The notes: generated by a model not told the origin, from the letters alone. A DNA stretch of 64,000 bases from a bacterium (GCA_030696105.1 JAUYNJ010000008.1:18030-82029); one strand, 5' to 3'; numbered from the stretch's first letter, positions 1,556 through 57,918 are shown. Numbers and translations: made by a program.

Positions 1556-2122
1556 ATGATTGAAAAATATAAAAAGCAGATCGTTGTCTTTTACCGAGTT
1601 AATCGGCGTATGCCTAATTATGCGGAAATAATGGCTCTGCTTGGCTATAAGTCGAAGAATGCCGTTTTTAAGCTCGTGCGCAAACTGCAAGCAGAAAATT
1701 TTTTGGATAAGGATAAGAAAGGTAAATTAATTCCGAAAAATATTTATGGCGAGTTAAAAGTACTGGGACGGGTAGAGGCTGGCTTTCCTTCTCCGGCCGA
1801 AGAAGAATTGGCCGATACAATGAGTTTGGACGATTTCTTAATTAAGAATAAAGAGGCGACCTATATGCTTAAGGTCAGCGGTGAGTCTATGATTGATGCC
1901 GGCATTATGCCGGGCGACATGGTTTTAGTTGATCGCAGTCTAAGCCCGGTTGACGGTAATATTGTCATTGCCGAAGTCGACAAACAGTGGACGGTAAAAT
2001 ATTTCCGTAAAAAAGGTAATGACATTTATCTTGAACCAGCAAATAAAAAGTTTCCAATAATACGGGCAAGTGATGAGTTAAGAGTCGCCGCGGTCGTTAA
2101 AGCCGTCATCCGCAAATACTAA
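1556..2122 (+). CDS. lexA: LexA-like repressor / S24 self-cleaving peptidase
   Basis: 188 aa with an N-terminal wHTH-like region. The S24 hallmarks are a cleavage-site-like VEAGFPSP, the Ser nucleophile in VSGESM, and Lys in TVKYFRKKG. Confidence 0.8.
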   Translation: MIEKYKKQIVVFYRVNRRMPNYAEIMALLGYKSKNAVFKLVRKLQAENFLDKDKKGKLIPKNIYGELKVLGRVEAGFPSPAEEELADTMSLDDFLIKNKEATYMLKVSGESMIDAGIMPGDMVLVDRSLSPVDGNIVIAEVDKQWTVKYFRKKGNDIYLEPANKKFPIIRASDELRVAAVVKAVIRKY

Positions 2123-2125
2123 AAT

Positions 2126-3430
2126 ATGCCTGTTTCAATTTCATCTTTTAAAAGAGCAATCCTGCACGTGGACGGTGATTGCTTTTTTGCTGCCTGCGAA
2201 ATCGCTCGCCGTCCCGAATTAAAAGGGAGGCCGGTGGTCACTGGTCTTGAGCGCGGTATTGTTTCCTCCCTTACCTATGAAGCGAAGGCGATGGGTATAA
2301 AGCGGGCGATGTCTTTTAGTGAAGTTAAAAAGATCTGTCCGCAAGTCGTATTTCTTCCCTCTGATTATGAGTCATACAGCTTATATTCTTTGCGCATGTA
2401 TAACATTGTTCGTCGCTTTACTCCTGATGTTGAAGAATATAGTATCGACGAATGTTTTGCCGACTTAACCGGCCTGCGTCGTCCTCTGCGCATGTCCTAT
2501 GAAAAGATAGCCGAGAAAATAAAGGAAACATTAGACAGTGAGCTCGGCTTCACTTTTTCAGTAGGTTTAGCGCCGACGAAGGTTTTAGCTAAAGTGGGCT
2601 CGAAGTGGAAAAAACCTTCCGGCCTTACTATCATCCCTGGTCGCGATATTGAATTATATCTCGCCAAACTCGACGTTGGTCAGGTCTGGGGCATTGGTCC
2701 ACAAACAACGGCGTTGTTAAATAAGTTTGGCGTGAGAACAGCGCTTGATTTTATCCGTCACGATATTGAATGGGTTAAAGTGCGCTTAACCAAGCCGCAA
2801 TTAGAAATTTGGCAGGAGTTGCGAGGCGAGATGGTATATCCCGTTGATACCGAGAAGAAGGATAGCTATCAATCAATTAGCAAAACAAAAACATTCACCC
2901 CACCATCAAGCAGCGAGATGCGTGTGTTTAGTCAATTATCAAAAAACGTAGAGAATGCTTGTATTAAATTACGTCGTCATCACTTAGCCGCGAAAAAAGT
3001 ATTTTTCTTTTTGAAAACGCAAGACTTTAAATATCACGGCTATGAATTTAAGTTAATGCGCCCGACTGATAATCCAATTGAAATTATCGCGATGGTGAAA
3101 CAGTATTTCAGTACAGTGTTCAAAGCCGCAAAGTTGTTTCGCGCGACCGGAGTAATATTAATGGATATATCCGAAAACGTTTGCCGCCAAGCCGACTTGT
3201 TTAATGAAGTCGCGCGGGCAGAAAAAATATCTAAAATATTTGGTAGCGTTGATGGTATGTCTCAGCGCTACGGAAAGCACGCGATATTTCTAGGCTCAAG
3301 CCTAGCGGCGATGACTGGCGCTCAGCATGAGGGGGCTCGCCAAACCACGCCGGACAGAAAAAGAGAGATATTTAAGGGGGAGACGGCGAGGAAAAGGCTA
3401 GCTATTCCATATTTGGGTGAGACTGGCTAA
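2126..3430 (+). CDS. Y-family (translesion) DNA polymerase, DinB/UmuC-like
   Basis: 434 aa. Motifs ILHVDGDCFFAACE, YSIDECFADLTG, VGLAPTKVLAKVGS and VWGIGPQT are those of the IMS/Y-family polymerases. It starts 4 nt after the lexA-like stop. Confidence 0.85.
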   Translation: MPVSISSFKRAILHVDGDCFFAACEIARRPELKGRPVVTGLERGIVSSLTYEAKAMGIKRAMSFSEVKKICPQVVFLPSDYESYSLYSLRMYNIVRRFTPDVEEYSIDECFADLTGLRRPLRMSYEKIAEKIKETLDSELGFTFSVGLAPTKVLAKVGSKWKKPSGLTIIPGRDIELYLAKLDVGQVWGIGPQTTALLNKFGVRTALDFIRHDIEWVKVRLTKPQLEIWQELRGEMVYPVDTEKKDSYQSISKTKTFTPPSSSEMRVFSQLSKNVENACIKLRRHHLAAKKVFFFLKTQDFKYHGYEFKLMRPTDNPIEIIAMVKQYFSTVFKAAKLFRATGVILMDISENVCRQADLFNEVARAEKISKIFGSVDGMSQRYGKHAIFLGSSLAAMTGAQHEGARQTTPDRKREIFKGETARKRLAIPYLGETG

Positions 3431-18365: not shown

Positions 18366-20282
18366 CTACCTAATATACTCAAACACATGCACGTCGCCCT
18401 GGTTTAGTCTTTGCCAGCTATCGGCGCTTAGTTTGGCTTCGGCAATGATCTTGTCACTGGCCCACCAATAACGGTTGATAATTAAGAAAGACCTATCAAC
18501 GCCAACCATCGTCATCGCTCTTGTCATCGTTTCGCGGTCAGCTTTGATATAGACCATGTCTAAAAAGTATTGATACAAAGGACCGCCGGTGGGAATGGGA
18601 TAGAAATACATTTCGTCGCCATTAACTTGCAGGTAGCGCTCGCGAAAGCCGAACTCTCGCAAAGCGGCAGCGCTCACTTGTTGATTAGTGAGCACGATGT
18701 ATTTCTCGCCCGCAGAGAGCTCTTCTGCGGCCCGTACAGCCGCCACATCAGCGGCACTGGTTGAATAGCCACGAGAGTTATGATAGTTATCGAAGCGCGG
18801 ATAGGAGGCGTAGACAGCGACGAGCAGGAGTAAAGATAATCCTATCGCTGTCGATATCTTCGCGGGGCGAGAGAGGGCGAGAGCACGATGAGATGCTTGA
18901 TAAAAGAATTCCCAAAACAAGGGGATGACAATAATTAAGGCAATCACCGGGAGTCTGGCGGCGTAATCATCTTGTTCGTAGGCGATGAGGCCTTCGAAAT
19001 GAAAGCCGCGACTAATTAAGTAAGCAATCATGGCGGCTAGAGCGGAGAGTGCAAGCACTTTAGCAACGCGAAAACTATTACTCTCTTCATTTGGCCACAA
19101 TCGTCTTCTTCCAAAGAAAATTAAAACAAGGGTGGTCAATAATAACCAGAAGTAATTTTTGATGAGGAAGTAAGCTAAGTCTAAGGCGTATGTTTCCTGG
19201 TTGGTTAACACCGGCATCAATAAATCGAGATTGTAACTTTGCAGTTGTAATGGTCCAAAGCCGGCAATCGCCCAGATAGATAAACTAAAGGCGACAATGG
19301 CTGCCCCTAAAATATAGGCAGGCTTGCGGTATACGCGCCATTTACTAATGTGCGGAAGAACTCGAGGCGCTAGTATCCAGGCACTTAAAAAAATGGCAGG
19401 AAGACCAGCGAGCGGATGAACCGCAAAGGCCGCGACGGCAGTTGTGACTGACAATGACCAGGGGGCATTTTTATAGAGAAAGATGATGGTGATGAGCAGT
19501 AGTAGGTAGCTAAAGTTCTGCGGCGTCGTCATGATCAACGGTGAGAAGCCGATGAAGAGCAGGCTGAGACTTGCGAGCCAAGTTGCCGCCTTATCACGGC
19601 GGCCGCGGTGTAAATAGGGAAGTATCAATGCCAGCGAGAGCGCGCTTAAAAGCGGGAGGAGCCACTGATTCACGTAGAAGACGCTAAGGCCAATTTTATC
19701 TAAGAAGGTGACCAGGCTATATTGACCAAGGTAGTATGGAGTTTTTGGGGAAATGAAACCGTAGCGACTGATTTCGGCCATGGCCGCTTGATGAATAAAG
19801 GGGTCAAAGCCATAGCAGAGGCGATAGACAATCGCGGCCACACAAAAAATGCTGACGAAGAAGGAAAATAGTAACACCTTTTTAAATGTCGCGGAAATAT
19901 TACGGCTTAAAGCCAAGATGAGCGCTAAAGCGCTTAAGCTAAGAGCCACAAAGAACCAAGCGCTAACTTCCGTCCAGGGGGTGATTATAGCGCTATCGGT
20001 ACGGGCCTGAAAAGCGATGATAATCGCTGTGATGGCGAGACCGAGGCTAAGAAAGCCGTAAATGAGCCCGCTTATGCTTTTCTCCTCTTGTTCTGATGAG
20101 GGTTTTATTTGGCGAAGAGAGGGGCGGAGAGCGTAATACATGAAGCCGGTGATGAGCAAACTCGCAGCGATGCCAAGCCAATCAAGGGCGTAAAAATAAT
20201 AAACCAGAGCTCCAGCGCTTAAATAAAGCATGAGCAGGATCCAAAAGTCGTAAAAATTGAAGACGAAACGATTGATTTTCAT
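18366..20282 (-). CDS. Polytopic membrane protein with C-terminal soluble domain (GT-C-like glycosyltransferase candidate)
   Basis: 638 aa, with more than 12 hydrophobic segments followed by a ~150-aa hydrophilic C-terminus. It is divergent from another GT-C-like gene. Function is inferred from topology and context only. Confidence 0.5.
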   Translation of the reverse strand: MKINRFVFNFYDFWILLMLYLSAGALVYYFYALDWLGIAASLLITGFMYYALRPSLRQIKPSSEQEEKSISGLIYGFLSLGLAITAIIIAFQARTDSAIITPWTEVSAWFFVALSLSALALILALSRNISATFKKVLLFSFFVSIFCVAAIVYRLCYGFDPFIHQAAMAEISRYGFISPKTPYYLGQYSLVTFLDKIGLSVFYVNQWLLPLLSALSLALILPYLHRGRRDKAATWLASLSLLFIGFSPLIMTTPQNFSYLLLLITIIFLYKNAPWSLSVTTAVAAFAVHPLAGLPAIFLSAWILAPRVLPHISKWRVYRKPAYILGAAIVAFSLSIWAIAGFGPLQLQSYNLDLLMPVLTNQETYALDLAYFLIKNYFWLLLTTLVLIFFGRRRLWPNEESNSFRVAKVLALSALAAMIAYLISRGFHFEGLIAYEQDDYAARLPVIALIIVIPLFWEFFYQASHRALALSRPAKISTAIGLSLLLLVAVYASYPRFDNYHNSRGYSTSAADVAAVRAAEELSAGEKYIVLTNQQVSAAALREFGFRERYLQVNGDEMYFYPIPTGGPLYQYFLDMVYIKADRETMTRAMTMVGVDRSFLIINRYWWASDKIIAEAKLSADSWQRLNQGDVHVFEYIR

Positions 20283-20365: not shown

Positions 20366-22150
20366 ATGAAATTACGCTGGTTTTGGCAAAAATTAGACTA
20401 TATTATCCTCGCTCTGCTCGTGGTCGGTTTTTTTGTCGCGAGCTCCCTGTTTAATTACTATACTCAAGAGCCAGGTTATGTTAAATTTCTGTCTCCCGAT
20501 GAAACAGCGAACTATTTTTTTGCACGTCACTATGCGGAGTCGGGCGTAATCTCGGTTTTTGAACCTGCAAACCTTATCGCGGAAGAAGTGGTACAGCCAC
20601 GTAGCATCCGCAGCGATCACGGCTGGTTAAAACCGGTTAGCTTCCTCGGCATTATTTTAGTATATGGCAAAATCGCCTCGGTTTTTGGAACGGGCGTAAT
20701 TCCATATTTAACACCCTTCTTTGCCTCGCTAGGAATACTATTTTTCTATGGCTTCGTGCGCAAGCTGTTTGGTCGACAAGCAGCCATCATCGCCGCGAGT
20801 CTATTGGCTGCTTTCCCGGTATATTTTTTCTACACCACGCGCAGCATGTTTCACAATATTATCTTCACCTTCTTTTTGCTGGGAGGGGCTTTCTTTTTAG
20901 TGTACAGCGTTGGTCCAAAGGAGAATGAGAAGACGAAGTTTCTTAGCTTTAAATTAAAAGCGAGTCAGTGGTGGATGTTTTTGTGGTCATTTCTCGCGGG
21001 TATATGTTTTGGTGGTGCTGCCGGAGCGCGCTCATCTGAATTACTTTGGCTTGCACCGGTTTTATTTATCGCCTGGCTATTTTATGCCCGCCGTCTCGGT
21101 CTTACCCGTCTTGTACTAATGGCGAGCGGGATTATTCTAGCCTTATTACCAATATTTTATTGGAATCAAATTTTATACTCCTCTCCTTTTTACGGCGGCT
21201 ACGGGGAAATGAATCAGTCGATATCGCAAATTACAAAGGCGAGCAGCAACCTAGTGCAATCAACGGTCAAAGGTAACTTTTCTCAGTATCGCGCGGTCGC
21301 TGATACTTTAATGGAGAATATTTTTTACTTTGGTTATCAGCCTTATCAATCACTGAAGATGTTTTATTATTACGTCGTTGTGATGTTTCCGATTTTGGTC
21401 GGACTGGCTTTCGTTGGGGGCATTGTCTTTCTGACGCGACTGCGCCGAAAATCAATACGACCGGCGATGCTTTATATTGTTTCTTGGATTGTATTGTCTG
21501 TGATTCTTGTATTTTACTACGGTTCCTGGAAATTTAATGATAATCCTGACCCTAGTCGCTTCACCATTGGTAATTCCTATACACGCTACTGGCTACCGAT
21601 GTATATTATGGCACTTCCGTTCGCGGCTTTAGCAATAAGTTTTTTTGCGCGCCTGTTGTCTAAGATTGTCTGGCTTAAACCAGGCGTCGAATGGCGCACG
21701 CGTTCTCGTCGGCTAATTGCCGATGGGTCCGCCTTCATGATGACCGGCTTAGTGATGTTTTTCTTCTTCATTTTTACCGTTTTTGGCTCCGAAGAAGGGC
21801 TGATTAATTTGTATTATAATCACGCGATTGATAAGGCTAACGCTGAGGCAATATTGGAAATAACTCCTGAAAATGCTATAATAATGACCCAGTATCATGA
21901 TAAGCAGTTATTTCCCGATCGTAAGGTTATTAATGCCTTACTGACAAACGATACAGTGAATGCGAGCGTGGGTAAAATTCTGGAACATTATCCGGTATAT
22001 TATTTCAATTTTGCTTTTCCCGAAAAAGATCTCATATATTTAAATGAAAGGCGCCTACCAAACTTCGGCTTTACCCTTGAGTTACTGATGAGGCGTGGCC
22101 GTTTTGGCCTGTATGAGTTAAAAGCAATTGAAGAGCTGCCGGCTCAGTAA
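20366..22150 (+). CDS. GT-C family glycosyltransferase (ArnT/PMT, GT39/83-like)
   Basis: 594 aa and polytopic. The N-terminal loop SPDETANYFFARHYAESG resembles the Asp/Glu-containing first periplasmic loop of ArnT/PMT_2 enzymes. Confidence 0.6.
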   Translation: MKLRWFWQKLDYIILALLVVGFFVASSLFNYYTQEPGYVKFLSPDETANYFFARHYAESGVISVFEPANLIAEEVVQPRSIRSDHGWLKPVSFLGIILVYGKIASVFGTGVIPYLTPFFASLGILFFYGFVRKLFGRQAAIIAASLLAAFPVYFFYTTRSMFHNIIFTFFLLGGAFFLVYSVGPKENEKTKFLSFKLKASQWWMFLWSFLAGICFGGAAGARSSELLWLAPVLFIAWLFYARRLGLTRLVLMASGIILALLPIFYWNQILYSSPFYGGYGEMNQSISQITKASSNLVQSTVKGNFSQYRAVADTLMENIFYFGYQPYQSLKMFYYYVVVMFPILVGLAFVGGIVFLTRLRRKSIRPAMLYIVSWIVLSVILVFYYGSWKFNDNPDPSRFTIGNSYTRYWLPMYIMALPFAALAISFFARLLSKIVWLKPGVEWRTRSRRLIADGSAFMMTGLVMFFFFIFTVFGSEEGLINLYYNHAIDKANAEAILEITPENAIIMTQYHDKQLFPDRKVINALLTNDTVNASVGKILEHYPVYYFNFAFPEKDLIYLNERRLPNFGFTLELLMRRGRFGLYELKAIEELPAQ

Positions 22151-26178: not shown

Positions 26179-27573
26179 TTAGTTTAATCCAGTGCTGCCG
26201 AAGCCTTTTTCGCCTCGTCCATCGCCCACGTCAATTGGGCCCTCCTCGACGCTCGGTGTTTCAATCTTCTGGATGAGTAGTTGCGCAATCTTTTGGCCCG
26301 CTTGCACGTGATATATATCTTCACTTAAATTCTTAAATACAACTTTTATCTCGCCGCGATAGCTAGCATCAATCACGCCGCCCATAGTTTTAAAGCCCTG
26401 GCTAGCGAGGCCGCTTTTATCCCAAATGAGGCCGACATAGCCCTCCGGGATTGAAAAGCGCAATCCTGTGGCAATAGCATCTTGCCCATAGGCTGGTATC
26501 GAACAGTCTTCACAGGCAAACAAATCTAAGCCGGCGTCACTCGCGTGGGCTCTCACTGGAAGTTTGGCTTCGGGACGAAGACGTTCGAAGCGAATTGAGC
26601 GCAGAGTGGGCTCTGCTGGTGTATGTGCTTGCGCAAGCGCTGGCTCGTCACCCTGATTGCTCGTGGTCGGAGCGGTGGTCGCCCCTTCTTCGTTTTCGTC
26701 TTCAGGATGAGCGGGAATACCACGAAGGGAACTATTGATATTGGAATGAATTGGAGTGTCTTGTTCTGGATTTATGGTCATAGAGGCTCGAGGAGCATTC
26801 ATTAGTTCTGGCAGATTAGGGGTAACACGACCCTTCTTTACTAAAATATCGCTCACGGCTTGGAAGTCTGGTATTTTTTTGATGCCACCAATACTTAAAA
26901 TGCGGTTAGCATAGAGCCAGACAAGATAATGAATATCCTCGCGACTCATCACTTCGCCATTGCGGGTACATTTAATCAGTCGGAAATCAGGCATGGTCTG
27001 AGCAATTTCAAGATACACTTGCTCCGCTTTTTTCAGATGATCAAGATTTTCTTCGTGAATGTCCTTAGTTTTGCCTTTCCAGTCCTCACGGCCGCGATCT
27101 TTCGCCATTTTTTGCGCGACCTCAGCTTCAACGTGCAGGATTAGGTATAAGTCAGGTTTAGGGATGTTAAATATTTTATATTCAATTTCACTGAGCCAGT
27201 TAAAGAATAGTTTGCGTTCAAGGGCATTAGGAATTTTGCCTCCTTGGTGGGCGAAGCTAGCGGAAACATAGCGGTTACAGACAACGACCTTGCCTTGTTT
27301 CAACCATTCACGAATTTGAAAACTGGCATCAAAACGGTCGGTAGCGTAAAGAATCGAAGCTGCGTAGGGGTTCACATCATCAGCGCCGCCATATTTGCCA
27401 GACAGATATTCTTCCACCATGCCGGCGGACTTGCTGTTATATTGGGGGAAGTCAGCGATTTGGACATCATAACCTTCGGCTTGAAGTTTTCCAACCAAAA
27501 GCTGCAACTGGGTAGTTTTGCCACTGCCATCGGTGCCGTCAATTACGATGAATTTTCCCAAGTATTCCGCCAT
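26179..27573 (-). CDS. Fusion protein: dTMP kinase (N-terminal) + dUTP diphosphatase (C-terminal)
   Basis: The N-terminal ~230 aa carry the Tmk P-loop IDGTDGSGKTTQ and TDRF. A ~100-aa low-complexity linker follows. The C-terminus carries all five dUTPase motifs: SDAGLDL, DKSGLA, GGVIDASYRGEI, GQKIAQLL and RGEKGFGSTG. Confidence 0.85.
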   Translation of the reverse strand: MAEYLGKFIVIDGTDGSGKTTQLQLLVGKLQAEGYDVQIADFPQYNSKSAGMVEEYLSGKYGGADDVNPYAASILYATDRFDASFQIREWLKQGKVVVCNRYVSASFAHQGGKIPNALERKLFFNWLSEIEYKIFNIPKPDLYLILHVEAEVAQKMAKDRGREDWKGKTKDIHEENLDHLKKAEQVYLEIAQTMPDFRLIKCTRNGEVMSREDIHYLVWLYANRILSIGGIKKIPDFQAVSDILVKKGRVTPNLPELMNAPRASMTINPEQDTPIHSNINSSLRGIPAHPEDENEEGATTAPTTSNQGDEPALAQAHTPAEPTLRSIRFERLRPEAKLPVRAHASDAGLDLFACEDCSIPAYGQDAIATGLRFSIPEGYVGLIWDKSGLASQGFKTMGGVIDASYRGEIKVVFKNLSEDIYHVQAGQKIAQLLIQKIETPSVEEGPIDVGDGRGEKGFGSTGLN

Positions 27574-27644: not shown

Positions 27645-28199
27645 TTAATATTGTATCTTAGCGATCAATTTGTCAATCTGGTCGTATAAATCTTGAAGTG
27701 TACCCTCGTTACTTAGGTGATGGGTGGCCGCTGCCATAGTTTCTGGTATTTGTTGTTCGGCCTCGCGCTCACTATCTTCGACAAACTGTTCAAACGTCTT
27801 ATCAGCATCACCAGCGTTTTCATTTCTCTTTTTCATGCGCTCGTACCTTGTCTCTGGCGATGCATCAATGCTAATTAGATGAAATCCAGGCAAGTCTTTG
27901 AGGCTGACAATATCATCTAAACGCCTCACACCGTCAACTACTACAATATCCTTGTCGCTATTTTTTACATCCTCGGCAATAACTTGCGCTAAGATGTCGC
28001 TGCCAAAGCGATTACGTAAATCAAGCGAAAGGTTTTGCATGTTCTCTCTGGAAATTGGCTGATATATTCGGCCTAAAATATCACGCAGGCAGGTTGAAAA
28101 TTTTGTAGTATCCGCATTATGCTTTTCCGTGATATAACGCTGGCAGACATCCTTGCCACTAGCGAGCTTACCGACGAAACCAAGAATTAGTTTGGGCAT
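27645..28199 (-). CDS. P-loop nucleotide/nucleoside kinase-like protein (specificity unknown)
   Basis: 184 aa with Walker A GFVGKLASGKDV, an SGKD-type loop as in dNMP-kinase and dephospho-CoA-kinase-like proteins. It is embedded in the thymidylate operon. Confidence 0.55.
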   Translation of the reverse strand: MPKLILGFVGKLASGKDVCQRYITEKHNADTTKFSTCLRDILGRIYQPISRENMQNLSLDLRNRFGSDILAQVIAEDVKNSDKDIVVVDGVRRLDDIVSLKDLPGFHLISIDASPETRYERMKKRNENAGDADKTFEQFVEDSEREAEQQIPETMAAATHHLSNEGTLQDLYDQIDKLIAKIQY

Positions 28200-28203
28200 A
28201 AGC

Positions 28204-29499
28204 TTACTGTTGTTTCATTACAATGTCATGTGTGCCACGGCGAACGTCCCAGTCATCAAGATCAAGGTCACAATGAAGTTTCACTTCAGGTAGATTTTCC
28301 TGCATAGCGTGAAACATTTTATGGGCAACACGTCTAAGGCTAGGGTGAACTGTTTTACCAGAGCGAAGCTCGGTGACATAAACAACGGAGGTAAGAGGAT
28401 TAGTGATATGACAGAAAACATTGAAACCCATAGCAGTATAATATTGCTTGGTTTCAGCGCTAGCTTCAAGGCTATCAATCATCTCTTTTTGCTTTGCGAT
28501 GAGAGTCTCCGCTTCAACCCTGAGGCTTTCTGGCAGCTGCTCTAAATACCAAGACTGGAAACCGAGCTCAGTGGTAAGCAGTGGAGTGCGGGAGATGGCG
28601 CTACGATGGCGTTGAATATCCCGGTAGGAACCGTAGTCGAGTAGAAATTCAAAACGACAACTACCGAGATCGCTCACGAAATAGGGGAGGTTTGTTTTAA
28701 TGGGACGAGTGTCTAATGCCTCAGAATATTTTTTAAGCTCTTCACGGTTAATGTCATGGGAGAAAGCGAATTCTTTTGGATTCTCTGGAGCAAAGTATGA
28801 GTATTTGGCCGTCATTTCGTGGCGATATGCTTCTTGTTCCGGATATTGGGGGTGAGAGAAGCTATTCTCGTACTTACTGCGCAGTTGATTTAAAATTTGG
28901 TCAGCTAATTCACGCATTTCTGCCAGGGGATGATGTCGAAGCAGGGAAAGCTTATCCCAAGCCTGGCGCAGATTTGTATGCCAACTCAATTGAGTGGTAA
29001 CGCCGGCTGGTAAAAAGCCACGCATGATATCAAAAGCACGAGCGTTAATGGCTTTGTCGTAAATTTTTTCATCTTCTTCTTCGCGACGGGGATATTTTTC
29101 CTTTAAAAATGGCTTTAAGGTTTCTTGACCGGAAACATAAAAATCCATCCAATTTTTTAAAATAAGTTTTGACTGATCTGTCGCGATTGGATCAATTATT
29201 GCCTGGCTGGCCATGTCGATATAGCGAGTACTGGTTTCTTGCCCGCTATACAAAGGCCAGTCTTGGATAGCCTTATCAGCCAGAATGCTCAATCCTTCAA
29301 TGAAAATAGTGGTGCTTCCGCAATCAGCAATTGAGGAGTGACCGTAGCCCACGTAAAAGGTGGACATAAACTTACCGCTGCCGCTCTGTCGGACCTTCTC
29401 CACATGTTCTTCAACACTTTTAGGACTACGCGAATAAAGCGCCTGCATCATCGCTGTATCTTCTGGGCTGAATTCGTCGTAAATAAAAACTTTAGCCAT
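28204..29499 (-). CDS. thyX: ThyX-like flavin-dependent thymidylate synthase, double-domain (431 aa)
   Basis: The N-half has GHSSIADCG...GLSILA...SGQETSTRY, a ThyX-like S-x-RY without RHR. The C-half has DIQRHRSAISRT, with RHR present. It sits between a dCMP deaminase gene and kinase genes. Confidence 0.7.
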   Translation of the reverse strand: MAKVFIYDEFSPEDTAMMQALYSRSPKSVEEHVEKVRQSGSGKFMSTFYVGYGHSSIADCGSTTIFIEGLSILADKAIQDWPLYSGQETSTRYIDMASQAIIDPIATDQSKLILKNWMDFYVSGQETLKPFLKEKYPRREEEDEKIYDKAINARAFDIMRGFLPAGVTTQLSWHTNLRQAWDKLSLLRHHPLAEMRELADQILNQLRSKYENSFSHPQYPEQEAYRHEMTAKYSYFAPENPKEFAFSHDINREELKKYSEALDTRPIKTNLPYFVSDLGSCRFEFLLDYGSYRDIQRHRSAISRTPLLTTELGFQSWYLEQLPESLRVEAETLIAKQKEMIDSLEASAETKQYYTAMGFNVFCHITNPLTSVVYVTELRSGKTVHPSLRRVAHKMFHAMQENLPEVKLHCDLDLDDWDVRRGTHDIVMKQQ

Positions 29500-29503
29500 A
29501 AAA

Positions 29504-30001
29504 TTATTTCATATCTTTATAAATAACAAATTCCTGCGAGAGCAGGGCGAACTCGACCTTTGCGTCAGCGAAAATTTCTTTGCTGCGTGTACCAGTGTGA
29601 TAATCCTGGGCACAAACAACGCGTTTAATACCAGCATTGATAATCATTTTGGCGCAGGTATAACAGGGAGTCATCTTGCAATATAAAGTGCCACCATCAA
29701 GCGAGATGCCCATACGGGCGGCTTCACAAATTGCATTTTGTTCGGCGTGGGTGGTGCGAATGCAATGGCGGCTAGTTGTGCCGTCTTCATGCGTGACGGT
29801 ATGCATTTCGTGTCCAACTTCATCACAGTGGGGTGCTCCGACAGGCGAGCCGACGTAGCCGGTAGCGACGATGCGACGGTCACGAGTAATGACACAGCCA
29901 GCGCGACCGCGGTCACAAGTACCACGAGTGCCAACCATCTCAGCGATCTTGATAAAATACTCATCCCAGGTGGGACGAACGTAAGTCGTTTCCTCACTCA
30001 T
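29504..30001 (-). CDS. dCMP deaminase (ComEB-type cytidine/deoxycytidylate deaminase)
   Basis: 165 aa with the zinc motifs HAEQNAI and PCYTCAKMI. Confidence 0.88.
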   Translation of the reverse strand: MSEETTYVRPTWDEYFIKIAEMVGTRGTCDRGRAGCVITRDRRIVATGYVGSPVGAPHCDEVGHEMHTVTHEDGTTSRHCIRTTHAEQNAICEAARMGISLDGGTLYCKMTPCYTCAKMIINAGIKRVVCAQDYHTGTRSKEIFADAKVEFALLSQEFVIYKDMK

Positions 30002-45654: not shown

Positions 45655-46245
45655 ATGGCCAAAATCTTAGATGACCAATTAGAAGCGGAGATGATCATCG
45701 CCGCCAAAGACAGAAATGCCGAAGCCTTCGGGAGTCTTTATGACGCTTATATTAAGAAAATTTACAATTTCGTATATTACAAAACATTGAATAAGGAAAA
45801 CGCTGAGGATATAACGAGCGTAGTATTCATTAAAGCCTGGGAGAAGTTACCGCAGTTTAAGGAGGGAAGCTTTGGTGCCTGGTTGTATACAATTGCCCGC
45901 AACGCCGTTATTGACCATTACCGTCGCGAGAAGTCGACCGTTGATATTGAAGATTGCTGGGACTTAAGCGATGGCACGGACTTTCTGGCAAATATCGATC
46001 GTGGTCTGAATTTAGAAAAGATTAAAGAAGCGATGTCAGAGCTTTCAGTCCAAGATCGCGAAATCCTCATTATGCGTTTTTGGCAAGACTTATCCTTTCA
46101 GGAAATTGCCGACCAGCTTGGTAAGAAAGAAGGGGCGATTAAAATGGCTTGTGGTCGCGCTCTTAAATCCTTAAAAACTAAAATTCCCTTTGCCCTGTTT
46201 CTTCTACTGCCGGGAATTATGCAAATATGCAAGAAAATGAATTAA
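45655..46245 (+). CDS. ECF-type RNA polymerase sigma-70 family factor
   Basis: Region 2 is FGAWLYTIARNAVIDHYRRE and region 4 is REILIMRFWQDLSFQEIADQLGKKEGAIKMACGRALKSL. Confidence 0.88.
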   Translation: MAKILDDQLEAEMIIAAKDRNAEAFGSLYDAYIKKIYNFVYYKTLNKENAEDITSVVFIKAWEKLPQFKEGSFGAWLYTIARNAVIDHYRREKSTVDIEDCWDLSDGTDFLANIDRGLNLEKIKEAMSELSVQDREILIMRFWQDLSFQEIADQLGKKEGAIKMACGRALKSLKTKIPFALFLLLPGIMQICKKMN

Positions 46246-47819
46246 ACATTATGTTGGCGGAGCTATACCGCGTCGATCCAACTCTGCGTGAATATGAGGA
46301 GCAACTTAAGCACCTTATTACTCAGATGACGGATTTGCGCCCAGATTCACAATTTACTCCCGCTTTAGCGGCGCGCCTAAAGGAGGAGGTAATGAAAACG
46401 GTGCAACAAAATAATCATCTCCAAGAAAACAATTTTAACTTTAACTTTATGAACAAGAAATTTTATTACTTTGCCGCCCCCGCTTTAGTGCTTGGTGTCG
46501 TAGCGGTCATCGTGCTATTGAATCCAGTGGTACGCACTGGGGACGTGGCCAGAACTGGTGTCTTCAACAACAAGGCATCTGATGAAGGTGTCAGCCGCTT
46601 AGCGGCGAATGCTTTCGGTGTTTTGAGTGGAGCGAGTAGTTCGGCTGTACAAAATGAAGCCGCTCCTCTCGCTGCTCGTAGCGTTGACTCGACTTTAAGT
46701 GGTGAGTTGGCAAGCGTTTCAAGTGATGGCGATATGGCTGTTACTTCGGGCGTGGCGACTGCACCTGGTTTTGCTTTAGGACTCGGTGGTGGTGGCGCCA
46801 TGGACGGCAAGATGATAATGCCGTATTTCGACTTTAAGTACGTTTATACTGGCGATCCAATTGTCTTAGAAGAAGGTAGCTCTGACGTCTATCGTCGTTT
46901 GAAGGGAGGCTCAACTGCTGCACGCTCCTTGGCCTCAATGGTTGGCAATCTTGATCTTAGTGGCGTCAAATTGAGCAAGTTTAGCAACCTCAGCGCTACA
47001 AACTTAACCTTAACTGAAGAAAAAGAAAAAGGTTTAATGATAACCTTAGACTTCATGGAGGATAGTATCTATATTTCTGAAAACTGGCAGCGCTGGATCT
47101 TAGCAGAAAGAGACGCTTGTGGTCAGGATGAGGCTTGCTGGGCTCGTTTCCGTCTAAGTATCAATGATGTACCGGCTGACTCAGAACTCATCGCCATGAC
47201 TAATAAATTCATGTCTGATCATGAAATTGATCTTCAAAACTACGGCACCCCAGAAGTCGATAACAACTGGCGCCTTGGTTACGACATTGCTGAGGATAAG
47301 AACAACTTCTATATCCCGGAATATGCGAGCGTCGTTTACCCACTCTTAATTAACAATGAACCGGTTCGCGATCAGGGTGGTAACTATGCTGGTATTCGTG
47401 TTAATATCAACTTATTACAGAAGGGCGTAACCGGTCTTTACGGCCTAACGCCATTCCGCTACGAAGCCTCAGCCTATGCTCTTGAAACTTCAGCGGAGAG
47501 AATTATTCGCATCGCTGAGAATGGTGGACAGGGCGGCATGTTCTTCAATGGCAGTGAAACTGGTACTACCGAAATACAACTTGGCACTCCGACAAAGTCA
47601 TATGTGCAGACTTATCGCTATCAGAATAACCGCAGTGAAGAATTACTCGTGCCTGCGCTCGTCTTCCCAATTTTGAATCCTGAAGCCTTCGGTTTCTACG
47701 GACAACGCTCAGTAATCGTACCGCTTGTACAGGAGATGTTGGGCGAGCTGGAAGCTAGAAATGTGCCTGGCGATGGTGGTATCGGTATCATGCCAGTAAT
47801 AATGGAAGCTAGACAGTAA
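46227..47819 (+). CDS. Single-pass membrane protein, putative cognate anti-sigma factor with large extracytoplasmic domain
   Basis: It overlaps the sigma gene by 19 nt. A ~80-aa cytoplasmic N-terminus is followed by one TM helix (YYFAAPALVLGVVAVIVLL) and a ~430-aa outside domain. There is no ZAS motif, so the function is inferred from context. Confidence 0.5.
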   Translation: MQENELNIMLAELYRVDPTLREYEEQLKHLITQMTDLRPDSQFTPALAARLKEEVMKTVQQNNHLQENNFNFNFMNKKFYYFAAPALVLGVVAVIVLLNPVVRTGDVARTGVFNNKASDEGVSRLAANAFGVLSGASSSAVQNEAAPLAARSVDSTLSGELASVSSDGDMAVTSGVATAPGFALGLGGGGAMDGKMIMPYFDFKYVYTGDPIVLEEGSSDVYRRLKGGSTAARSLASMVGNLDLSGVKLSKFSNLSATNLTLTEEKEKGLMITLDFMEDSIYISENWQRWILAERDACGQDEACWARFRLSINDVPADSELIAMTNKFMSDHEIDLQNYGTPEVDNNWRLGYDIAEDKNNFYIPEYASVVYPLLINNEPVRDQGGNYAGIRVNINLLQKGVTGLYGLTPFRYEASAYALETSAERIIRIAENGGQGGMFFNGSETGTTEIQLGTPTKSYVQTYRYQNNRSEELLVPALVFPILNPEAFGFYGQRSVIVPLVQEMLGELEARNVPGDGGIGIMPVIMEARQ

Positions 47820-50163: not shown

Positions 50164-51174
50164 TTAGAACTTTATAATGGTGTACGCACTGAAGGCGTGA
50201 TATACCATGTCATATCTCAGTTCGAGGATGAGGCGTCCGTAATCCGTTTTGAAGTCTTTATAGACTTCAAACGATGGAGCGAGCCTGAGAGTTGATCCCT
50301 CATGCACGCTATTAATTCCGACGGCGGCGGCAAAGTTTCTGTGGCCAATTTTTTTGCTCATTATGAGTTCATGGGTGGAACAGGCGCCACTCCTCTTACT
50401 ATCAAATTTCACCGCATAGGTACCTTTGGTACTGATGGGTGAAAAGTGTTTGTAAAAGAATATTGGCACTACCATGTAACTGGTAGCTTCAATATAGAGG
50501 TCCTGCGAGAAGAAACCTTGGTTGATTTCCCCAAACCCGGCTTGTGTCCGGAACCAATAATTCCCGTTCTGTTGCCAGTTCAGAAACGTAAAGGAACCGA
50601 AGTGTTTCAAATTCTTAGTACCGGCAAATGCCCAGTACTGATCATCCGAAACCCCCACCGATACGAAAGCGTGTTTTGGGTGAAAAGCCACCCATGCCAT
50701 GATCGCATCATCTTTACTCCACTCCTCATTAAAGGAGTGATAACCGAGAGCGTAAACCTCGGCGGTGAAAAGATGATTGGCGATGCGTGTTCCGGCGTAA
50801 TCCCAAGGGACTGCCGAGGGGCTAATCATACGGCCGATCTCCAGTAAGACATTATAGTTGCCATACTGCTTGGTGGCCCAGGCATCAAAGACGTACTGGT
50901 CGTTTTGGTCATGGTCACCCATTTTTACCACCATCGCACTGAGTGTGGTGGTGGAATCTGAGTAGAGGTTTACACCGAGACCCAATACGTCGACGGCGTA
51001 TTTCTTATAATCGTATTTCAGGTTCCACTTTTCAGTGGAAATCTCTACGCGCTGAACGGATACTTCCGAAACGGCGGTATCCATTTTAATGGTGCTTTCC
51101 AGATTAACATTCTGTCCGAAAGCTGCAATAATCATAGTCATGGCTACGGTAATCACAAATGCTACTTTTTTCAT
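50164..51174 (-). CDS. Secreted protein with beta-barrel-like features (unknown function)
   Basis: Signal peptide MKKVAFVITVAMTMIIAAFG. The sequence is aromatic- and Gly-rich with alternating hydrophobicity, and the C-terminus ...HAFSAYTIIKF ends in Phe. Confidence 0.6.
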   Translation of the reverse strand: MKKVAFVITVAMTMIIAAFGQNVNLESTIKMDTAVSEVSVQRVEISTEKWNLKYDYKKYAVDVLGLGVNLYSDSTTTLSAMVVKMGDHDQNDQYVFDAWATKQYGNYNVLLEIGRMISPSAVPWDYAGTRIANHLFTAEVYALGYHSFNEEWSKDDAIMAWVAFHPKHAFVSVGVSDDQYWAFAGTKNLKHFGSFTFLNWQQNGNYWFRTQAGFGEINQGFFSQDLYIEATSYMVVPIFFYKHFSPISTKGTYAVKFDSKRSGACSTHELIMSKKIGHRNFAAAVGINSVHEGSTLRLAPSFEVYKDFKTDYGRLILELRYDMVYHAFSAYTIIKF

Positions 51175-56433: not shown

Positions 56434-57918
56434 TTATTGAGCGACGTCGTAGGTGATAGGAGCGCCGAGAGGGTATAGATACAGCAATTGCGGGCTAACG
56501 GTGATGACATTTGACCAGTTATATCCTAAGCGCTCGAAGTCATTACCACTTACAAAAGGTCGTTTCTCACCGTGCACGATTAGATAAACAGCCGGTGCAT
56601 TTGGTGACTTAAGTAGTTCGCCGTCATCAAATAAGACTGGCGAAACCTTGGTGTACTGTGCGAGCTCTGCGGCAGTGGGCTTAAGAATTGTTTTACCTTT
56701 GAACTTAGTGCTTAATAAAACCTTATCGATAATTGGGGCTTTGATACCGTCTTGGGCGAAATAGACACCACCACTGTCGGGATCACGGAGTAGGGCGCCG
56801 GTCGGATAGACGGATGTTGCCTTGAGCATTGTGCCCTCGCGGTAGTAGCTCAAATCTTGAGTAGTGGCAGGGATAATCTCTTCGGGGTTAAAGCCAAATT
56901 TCTTAAAGGCATCAAGATTTTCGAACTTGCGCTTCTCGTCACCGACGATTAAATAAAGGCTGGCATCAGAGGCACGGACGATGGAATAATTAGGCAGACT
57001 GATGGGCTGTCCTTTTTCGTAGCCTTCTAGCTCAACCTTATCAACTGAAATAATCTTATCGAGGCTATAGCGGGAAACGAGGGCGCTCTTACTAGTGAAG
57101 GGGCGCTTCATACCATCTCGGATGAGCCATACTCCGACCTCACCTTTTGCCTGCAGGAGGGAGCCGTCAGCATAGCGAGATGAGCTTTTTGGGAAATAAC
57201 GTTCGTATAAGCGGTATACATTATAATTACCGTCGAAGACGTGGGGCGTATAGTTGTATAGTGCAGCCGTCGCTTTGTTTTGAGGAGTGACGACCATGGT
57301 TTCGTTCGAAATTGTACCGTAGGGATTACTGAAAGTATAAGTTTGCCCAGCCTTATAGCTGTAGCGGTGCTGTTCGTTCATGTAGGCAAGAAATTGCAGG
57401 GAAGCGCTGTTTACTTGTTTACCGAAGCCTTTGTAATAAGGGTTGCAGGTCCAACCATCAGGGCAGCCATATCCCGTCGCCCAGTCAAGTCGTGCCTGCG
57501 CCGGATTTACCTCTTCAACAACGCTCGATTCTTTTTGTAAAAGCACAAGGAGAAACTTAGGACTAACTGTGGTGATGCGGCGACACTTTAATTGCTTTTC
57601 AGCTTCAGTCGGAGCGTCGGAAAGAGTGACGCCGGCGCAATCAAAGTTGCTTTTAGCGGCTTCGTAGATGATTTCTGCGGCAGTCTTTAAAGTGCCATGA
57701 GCGTTCAGTGTTTTATAGGTGGCGAGGTAACTATTTTTATTCTGTAAAAAATTCTGAATTTGCTCCAGCGTCATGCTATCAGCATTCATTAAATCATCAT
57801 CGCTGATAATTAAATTGGGATTGAAGTTGGGGTCTATGGTTTGAGCATTTGTGCTCGAAAATGGTGCAGACAGGAGGATGATAGCAGCTAACGCCGCTAG
57901 ACCGAATGATTTATACAT
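56434..57918 (-). CDS. Secreted protein with lysozyme/transglycosylase-like N-domain (tentative) and four C-terminal ~55-aa repeats
   Basis: It has a signal peptide. The segment LLVLLQKESSVVEE...ATGYGCPDGW may contain a Glu-Ser catalytic-like motif. Four modules carry the core motifs VWLIRDGMKRPF, LYLIVGDEKRKF, VYFAQDGIKAPI and VYLIVHGEKRPF. Confidence 0.55.
   Translation of the reverse strand: MYKSFGLAALAAIILLSAPFSSTNAQTIDPNFNPNLIISDDDLMNADSMTLEQIQNFLQNKNSYLATYKTLNAHGTLKTAAEIIYEAAKSNFDCAGVTLSDAPTEAEKQLKCRRITTVSPKFLLVLLQKESSVVEEVNPAQARLDWATGYGCPDGWTCNPYYKGFGKQVNSASLQFLAYMNEQHRYSYKAGQTYTFSNPYGTISNETMVVTPQNKATAALYNYTPHVFDGNYNVYRLYERYFPKSSSRYADGSLLQAKGEVGVWLIRDGMKRPFTSKSALVSRYSLDKIISVDKVELEGYEKGQPISLPNYSIVRASDASLYLIVGDEKRKFENLDAFKKFGFNPEEIIPATTQDLSYYREGTMLKATSVYPTGALLRDPDSGGVYFAQDGIKAPIIDKVLLSTKFKGKTILKPTAAELAQYTKVSPVLFDDGELLKSPNAPAVYLIVHGEKRPFVSGNDFERLGYNWSNVITVSPQLLYLYPLGAPITYDVAQ

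Follow-up and report, generated by a model that had tools for sequence, protein, structure and literature searches.

A double-length ThyX in which two fused domains probably share out the catalytic residues of a flavin-dependent thymidylate synthase

A 64,000-nucleotide stretch of bacterial DNA (GCA_030696105.1 JAUYNJ010000008.1:18030-82029, hereafter the window) encodes a ThyX-like protein of 431 amino acids (aa), which structural models and sequence comparison indicate to be a tandem of two ThyX domains with a helical linker between them. We consider it likely that the protein is a genuine flavin-dependent thymidylate synthase (FDTS) in which the two fused, diverged domains share out the catalytic residues. 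It would then catalyze the reaction dUMP (deoxyuridine monophosphate) + CH2-THF (methylenetetrahydrofolate) + NADPH -> dTMP (deoxythymidine monophosphate). The residue pattern, read against the published make-up of the ThyX site, argues strongly that two active sites of the enzyme, rather than four, are likely to be functional. The gene and its two halves are located as follows.

28204..29499, minus strand: tandem, double-domain ThyX gene (ATG start, open reading frame (ORF) of 431 aa)
28855..29499, minus strand: N-half ThyX domain, residues 1-215 (Pfam Thy1; hhalign against canonical ThyX)
28207..28854, minus strand: linker helix and C-half ThyX domain, residues 216-431 (AlphaFold and Foldseek; hhalign)

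The initial annotation had described a double-length ThyX-like protein and quoted one peptide from each half. The ORF does have the expected length, and both peptides were found in it, the N-half peptide GHSSIADCGSTTIFIEGLSILADKAIQDWPLYSGQETSTRY at residues 53-93 and the C-half peptide CRFEFLLDYGSYRDIQRHRSAISRTP at residues 281-306. The AlphaFold2 model of the full-length protein had a predicted local distance difference test score (pLDDT) of 82.6 and a predicted template-modelling score (pTM) of 0.84. When this model was compared with the PDB, all of the 50 matches listed were ThyX-family structures. A solved tandem ThyX was not among these fold matches, all of which were single-domain chains of at most 270 residues with a high root-mean-square deviation. 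A viral model of 461 aa in BFVD matched the whole tandem (TM 0.78, E 3e-24).

The N-half is readily recognized from its sequence. Pfam Thy1 (PF02511) covers residues 17-208 with an E-value of 1.2e-19 over profile positions 16-187 of 191, and hhalign aligned the N-half to canonical ThyX with a probability of 96.8% (E 3e-10). The canonical profile was a small alignment of the Thermotoga maritima (Tm), Mycobacterium tuberculosis (Mtb), Corynebacterium glutamicum and PBCV-1 proteins; residue numbers follow the Tm sequence, which was compared with PDB chain 1kq4_A and is the same save for one C-terminal residue. Pfam and NCBIfam scans of the single protein gave no match over residues 216-431, and Pfam Thy1 matched the C-half weakly in 11 of 20 members, with a best E-value of 0.0016. 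The AlphaFold model of the C-half alone (residues 216-431) had a pLDDT of 87.5, and Foldseek found 156 PDB matches to it at E<=0.001. Among the 50 listed, all were ThyX-family structures, one of them the PolB paralogue, and the best was PBCV-1 ThyX (4fzb_D, E 6e-7), with TM scores of 0.56-0.63. In addition, a C-half profile built from 137 diverse members was aligned by hhalign to canonical ThyX (E 4.6e-5), with the RHR motif and R174 falling on their counterparts. Structure settles the C-half as a ThyX domain where the sequence evidence is weak, so that both halves, whose relatedness to ThyX had been an open point in the initial annotation, proved to be ThyX-related.

The alignments place the known ligand residues of ThyX in the following segments of the two halves, N-half first.

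29332..29340, minus strand: H54-S55-S56, GHxS segment (Tm H53/T55; Mtb S71)
29254..29262, minus strand: D80-W81-P82, degenerate, at the canonical RHR position
29221..29238, minus strand: E88-T-S90-T-R92-Y93, substrate loop (Tm E86/S88/R90/Y91)
29020..29022, minus strand: R160 (Tm R147, dUMP phosphate ligand; HMMER and hhalign)
28966..28974, minus strand: N176-L-R178 (Tm N163/R165, Mtb R190; HMMER and hhalign)
28603..28623, minus strand: R293-D294-I-Q-R297-H298-R299, ThyX RHR motif (Tm R74-Q75-W-F-R78-H79-R80)
28345..28365, minus strand: R379 to H385 (R379 = Tm R174, uracil N3/O4 ligand; hhalign)

It had been proposed that the N-half keeps the serine and the S-T-R-Y part of the signature but has DWP in place of RHR, and that the C-half keeps RHR without S-x-RY. 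Both statements were borne out by hhalign, which put D80-W81-P82 of the N-half and R297-H298-R299 of the C-half on the same Tm residues, R78-H79-R80. Relative to canonical ThyX, the C-half has two deletions, of 8 residues at GHxS..EH and of 12 residues at the S-x-R-Y loop. Thus the ThyX signature, RHR-x7-S with S-x-R-Y, is absent from either half singly and complete only across both. H190 and E194 of the N-half correspond to Tm H178 and E182, and Y353 of the C-half occupies the position of Tm R147 (both by hhalign). The N-half counterpart of Tm R174 is not firm, with HMMER giving R188 and hhalign giving L186; arginine is kept at neither. Each chain as a whole carries the full set of flavin adenine dinucleotide (FAD) and dUMP ligands: H54, S56, E88, S90, R92, Y93, R160 and R178 in the N-half, and R297-R299 and R379 in the C-half.

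The conservation of this split signature was followed in two sets of homologues: 137 representatives with 38-55% identity to the 431-aa query, and the 120 listed members of a clade of proteins of about 520 aa, of the type found in Acidobacteria. Among the representatives, S56, S90 and R92 of the N-half were invariant (137/137), and H54 (134/137), E88 (133), Y93 (131), R160 (130) and R178 (110) were largely kept. C-half residues R293, D294, R297, R299, R379 and H385 were likewise present in 137/137, with H298 in 121/137. RHR did not occur at N-half positions 80-82 in any representative (0/137); position 81 varied between N, S, W, T and H, and position 188 was arginine in just 36/137. In the Acidobacteria-type clade, where D-E-Q replaces RHR in the N-half, all 120 members had H54, S56, E88, S90, R92, Y93, R160 and R178 in the N-half and R293, D294, R297-R299, R379 and H385 in the C-half. 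The split signature was also kept in 4/4 phage homologues, in which the R293-R299 motif was invariant. With no exception at the invariant motif positions among the 137 representatives or the 120 clade members, the split of the motif is more than chance. Positions of the N-half that would serve the predicted dead sites are relaxed, the RHR position being variable and the R174 equivalent not being kept, and the C-half segments that would have no use in the split arrangement (GHxS and the SxRY loop) are physically deleted. The structural part of the initial annotation, a tandem pseudo-dimer with complementary half-motifs, is thus supported in that both halves have the ThyX fold and the motif split is strongly conserved.

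ThyX is described in reviews as homotetrameric, with four identical sites that each belong to three subunits. According to a review of ThyX structures (PMC6514825), subunit A contributes RHR (Mtb 95-97) and Arg199 (Tm R174), which bind the FAD phosphate/ribityl, the isoalloxazine and dUMP; subunit B contributes Ser71, the serine of GHxS, and Arg190, the arginine of NxR, which bind the FAD phosphates; and subunit C contributes Arg87, Ser105, Arg107 and Tyr108 of the SxRY loop, which bind dUMP and cover the reacting atoms C5/N5. On the residue mapping, the C-half would play the first role only (RHR and the R174-type arginine), and the N-half the second and third only (GHxS/NxR and the E-x-S-x-R-Y loop), having lost the first. 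In a 222-symmetric tetramer every subunit would play every role once, and the sites would be assembled in this way:

site(A): RHR from A, GHxS/NxR from B, SxRY from C
site(B): RHR from B, GHxS/NxR from A, SxRY from D
site(C): RHR from C, GHxS/NxR from D, SxRY from A
site(D): RHR from D, GHxS/NxR from C, SxRY from B

With C-halves at positions A and D and N-halves at B and C, site(A) and site(D) would have all their residues and the remaining two sites would be dead. Two 431-aa chains would then form a pseudo-tetramer with its two C-halves on the diagonal, each completing one site with two N-halves. We predict two sites, the halved number that the initial annotation had suggested, because the residue split maps onto the published three-subunit site. 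The predicted enzyme would have a mass of about 100 kDa, bind two FAD and contain two active sites, compared with a tetramer of 4 x 25 kDa with four. How the chains assemble, how many sites result and that the enzyme is active are all points that we infer, and such a two-site pseudo-tetramer agrees with all the patterns of conservation and deletion that were observed.

Several observations weigh against this interpretation. The protein scored 31 bits with TIGR02170, the curated thyX equivalog model, which is below its cutoff of 87.9. A profile of 20 C-halves searched against PDB sequences did not find ThyX, and direct profile alignment of the N-half with the C-half gave E-values of 0.039-0.33 with 30 close sequences, which are not significant, and 0.007 with 137 diverse sequences, which we also count as not significant. 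Because the direct alignment is not significant, the claim of a duplication rests on the fold and on the match of each half to canonical ThyX. The geometry of the pseudo-tetramer is a prediction from the residue pattern. Tm R147 presumably comes from the third subunit, and the subunit assignments of R147 and of R74/Q75 follow in part UniProt/HAMAP annotation. The window shows 64 kb of a genome, elsewhere in which a second thymidylate synthase is possible. Finally, the structural review lists Mtb R87 among the dUMP ligands that the third subunit provides, but the corresponding position of the N-half, 72, is I/M and not arginine. Lys76, present in 134/137 representatives, is a possible stand-in for R87 in the clade of the Candidate Phyla Radiation (CPR); the residue is isoleucine in the Acidobacteria-type clade.

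On one rival reading, the C-half is a non-catalytic scaffold or regulatory domain carrying a chance RHR-like string, with catalysis by the N-halves alone or with a separate partner; Pfam and the PDB sequence searches do barely detect it. We regard this as highly improbable. The N-half lacks both RHR and a conserved R174 equivalent, so that the known mode of FAD and dUMP binding is not open to it. Moreover, the six C-half residues that are invariant in both sets behave as expected of catalytic residues, and the C-half residues are in register with Tm R74/Q75/R78/R80/R174. Another reading accepts the two catalytic pockets and gives the two degenerate ones a use of their own, for example as sites for NADPH, folate or an allosteric nucleotide. 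ThyX has no dedicated NADPH-binding domain (PMC3498832), and residues specific to the long form are conserved near the degenerate positions: K76, D80 (111/137) and Y353 (127/137), together with W317/Y318. Between the clades, however, K76 changes to I and W317/Y318 to A/G; this difference in conservation therefore argues for a structural rather than a ligand-binding role, and we consider retooled pockets improbable. In its fuller form, this reading makes the long ThyX obligatorily asymmetric, with two catalytic and two retooled pockets giving a regulated thymidylate synthase in CPR, Acidobacteria and large phages, a proposal that we hold to be doubtful; if true, it would be a mechanism not seen in homotetrameric ThyX.

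Beyond the source genome, the long form makes up a very large family spread over Patescibacteria, Acidobacteria and several large phages. It comprises more than 4160 clusters at 90% identity, and among the matches listed (120 clusters) the proteins were of 428-441 aa and the named ones belonged to Patescibacteria. At 50% identity there were 504 clusters with E<1e-30, and 229 matches were confirmed in GTDB species-representative genomes. A search with the protein of the Tunturiibacter phage Tunturi_5 found the second very large clade, of about 515-530 aa. Its named members are Terriglobales, Acidobacteriia or Terriglobia, some of them on Mb-scale contigs, and the ThyX homologues retrieved under Acidobacteria names were of the long type. 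In a COG-based table of a 2018 review from the laboratory that described ThyX, 6/6 Acidobacteria genomes have ThyX and 0/6 have ThyA. The tandem form is therefore suggested to be the only, and hence a working, thymidylate synthase in Acidobacteria, and it is probably the sole dTMP route in many Patescibacteria and Acidobacteria.

In phage genomes, tblastn found full-length homologues in the phiKZ-like Vibrio jumbo phages vB_VmeM-Yong (97% coverage, 33% identity, E 1e-60) and BONAISHI (ORF269). Further homologues were present in Microcystis phage Mvi-JY20 and in Tunturi_5, where the gene adjoins a deoxycytidine monophosphate (dCMP) deaminase gene with a dUTPase gene near. The phage genes have these positions in the loci that we compared:

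L081 5923-7308: tandem ThyX gene of vB_VmeM-Yong
L082 2899-4341: tandem ThyX gene of BONAISHI
L083 2917-4335: tandem ThyX gene of Mvi-JY20
L084 2968-4524: tandem ThyX gene of Tunturi_5

The tandem proteins of the Vibrio phages are closest to Patescibacteria sequences, and the authors of the BONAISHI genome reported a best match of ORF269 in Parcubacteria. Three of the four phage records annotate the protein as 'hypothetical protein' or 'thymidilate synthase-like protein'.

The neighbours of the ThyX gene in the window belong to the same pathway.

29504..30001, minus strand: dUMP-forming dCMP deaminase, 4 bases upstream of the ThyX gene (Pfam dCMP_cyt_deam_1, E 2.6e-23)
27645..28199, minus strand: P-loop (deoxy)nucleotide kinase-like protein, 184 aa, 4 bases downstream (AAA_17; weak DNMK; PRK08356)
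26179..27573, minus strand: thymidylate kinase-dUTPase (Tmk-Dut) fusion, 464 aa (Thymidylate_kin, E 2.1e-26; dUTPase, E 1.6e-27)

The cluster supplies dUMP and uses dTMP. In the fusion protein, Tmk occupies residues 8-205 and dUTPase about 327-462, with a low-complexity linker of about 110 residues between them. The best match of the 184-aa kinase was PRK08356, a 'hypothetical protein' of NCBIfam (E 1e-21, below cutoff). This kinase also weakly resembles a deoxynucleoside monophosphate kinase and the kinase part of an anti-phage dCTP deaminase. Neighbours were counted within 6 kb of the long ThyX gene in the best 80 of the 229 GTDB loci, which come from 80 different assemblies. A dCMP deaminase gene was present in 67/80 species, the kinase in 71/80, Tmk in 64/80 and Dut in 48/80. 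The Tmk-Dut fusion may be common in this lineage, because in many related loci Tmk and Dut follow each other as they do here and at a like distance. Fmt and Def are also encoded in the window, and the organism therefore uses folate cofactors.

ThyA was not found in the 64-kb window, and in the 80 related loci it was represented by one truncated remnant (1/80). The latter lies in a single Patescibacteria metagenome-assembled genome, where a 132-aa ORF (L044 5456-5854) just upstream of the long ThyX gene encodes about 97 N-terminal ThyA residues, 61% identical to Escherichia coli ThyA, joined to a stretch that repeats exactly the final ~50 residues of the dCMP deaminase close by (L044 3636-4112). 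This ORF may be what is left of a thyA gene, or it may result from a rearrangement or a chimeric assembly.

These surroundings bear on the suggestion, made in the initial annotation, that the tandem might signal a changed function such as that of a hydroxymethylase. The protein would then be a neofunctionalised ThyX paralogue acting in dUMP/dCMP hydroxymethylation, PolB-like UMP (uridine monophosphate) methylation or another pyrimidine modification instead of dTMP synthesis. The score under the thyX equivalog cutoff agrees with this, the family has one precedent in PolB (4p5a, among the C-half fold matches), and the long form is carried by large phages, a group in which some members modify their DNA. 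Each chain, however, keeps the complete dUMP/FAD residue set, including the uracil-reading R379 and the S90/R92/Y93 loop, and the dCMP deaminase/Tmk/Dut cluster for dTTP (deoxythymidine triphosphate) synthesis is conserved. The near absence of ThyA from the loci in view and the Acidobacteria with ThyX and without ThyA, whose named homologues are of the long type, also speak against it, as does the BONAISHI paper, the authors of which found no DNA-modification genes. A nucleoside-antibiotic biosynthetic cluster is not present around the ThyX gene, the neighbours of which are housekeeping genes of the dTTP pathway and of translation. On residues and gene context, a changed function was ruled out as the leading idea; we judge it unlikely, and thymidylate synthesis is favoured.

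Our literature searches for tandem, duplicated, pseudo-dimeric, two-domain or split-motif ThyX found no description, and none was found for ThyX of CPR/Patescibacteria or Chlamydia. Nor did we find a paper establishing the long form as a well-characterised ThyX subclass with proven activity, a case that the initial annotation had allowed for. The protein represents a widespread and apparently undescribed architecture of a familiar enzyme; what it does is ordinary, and the interest lies in how it is built. Canonical ThyX/FDTS (T. maritima TM0449, 1kq4/1o26; M. tuberculosis Rv2754c, 2af6/3gwc; PBCV-1 A674R, 2cfa/4fzb) has the same fold as both halves, the same catalytic residue set as the two halves combined and the same logic of metabolic neighbourhood. 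It differs in being a chain of about 220-250 aa with all motifs and four identical sites, whereas the 431-aa protein has two specialised domains and two predicted sites. Thermus thermophilus Thy1 (6j61) and the atypical C. glutamicum ThyX (3fnn/3ge9), also longer or atypical, were among the fold and sequence matches. By its PDB title, 6j61 adds a C-terminal domain to an otherwise complete ThyX; the chains are of 239-270 residues and, unlike in the 431-aa protein, the ThyX domain is complete. PolB (4p5a), the polyoxin UMP/dUMP methylase, is a ThyX-fold paralogue showing that the family can change its substrate, but it is a single-domain chain of 239 aa, in contrast to a tandem in a dTTP-synthesis cluster. 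According to a review, PolB is encoded by a second thyX gene in Streptomyces, for polyoxin biosynthesis.

Three further systems share single features with the tandem. Monomeric herpesvirus dUTPase has a duplicated fold with its motifs spread over two fused copies and fewer sites per fold unit; the likeness lies in the distribution of motifs over a duplicated fold, and the fold and chemistry are unrelated. In Helicobacter pylori ThyX, mixing differently inactivated subunits reportedly restores activity because the sites are shared between subunits. That case is an engineered heteromer of full-length subunits, in contrast to an evolved single chain with deletions. Chlamydial ThyX (Chlamydia trachomatis CT632) is about 529 aa long and reportedly biochemically active. 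Its length matches that of the ~520-aa clade; it may belong to the clade, in which case activity of the long form would already be established and the architecture still undescribed. Chlamydial ThyX has been considered too divergent for inclusion in ThyX phylogenies (PMC6171736).

ThyX is an antibacterial drug target. A widespread single-chain form with the three roles distributed over two domains would amount to a mutant-mixing experiment fixed by evolution, and would offer nature's own test of the three-subunit site model. If it carries two sites and two FAD per ~100 kDa, it would offer an asymmetric enzyme for mechanistic work. Large phages have also acquired it. As to annotation, neither Pfam nor NCBIfam recognizes the second domain; such proteins are filed as ThyX with an unexplained tail of 220 residues, and they score well under the thyX equivalog cutoff.

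Elsewhere the window has the content of an ordinary bacterial chromosome, with genes for ATP synthase, GroEL, DnaB, RecR, MurA, ClpB, GatB, MiaA and MiaB. At 1556-3430 on the plus strand, an ORF for a LexA-like S24 peptidase is immediately followed by one for a Y-family (ImpB/UmuC-type) DNA polymerase, which looks like a pair of the SOS-mutagenesis type in a small CPR genome. No Pfam match at E<=1e-5 was obtained for five large ORFs, of 336-638 aa:

18366-20282, minus strand: ORF without Pfam match
20366-22150, plus strand: ORF without Pfam match
46227-47819, plus strand: ORF without Pfam match
56434-57918, minus strand: ORF without Pfam match
50164-51174, minus strand: ORF without Pfam match

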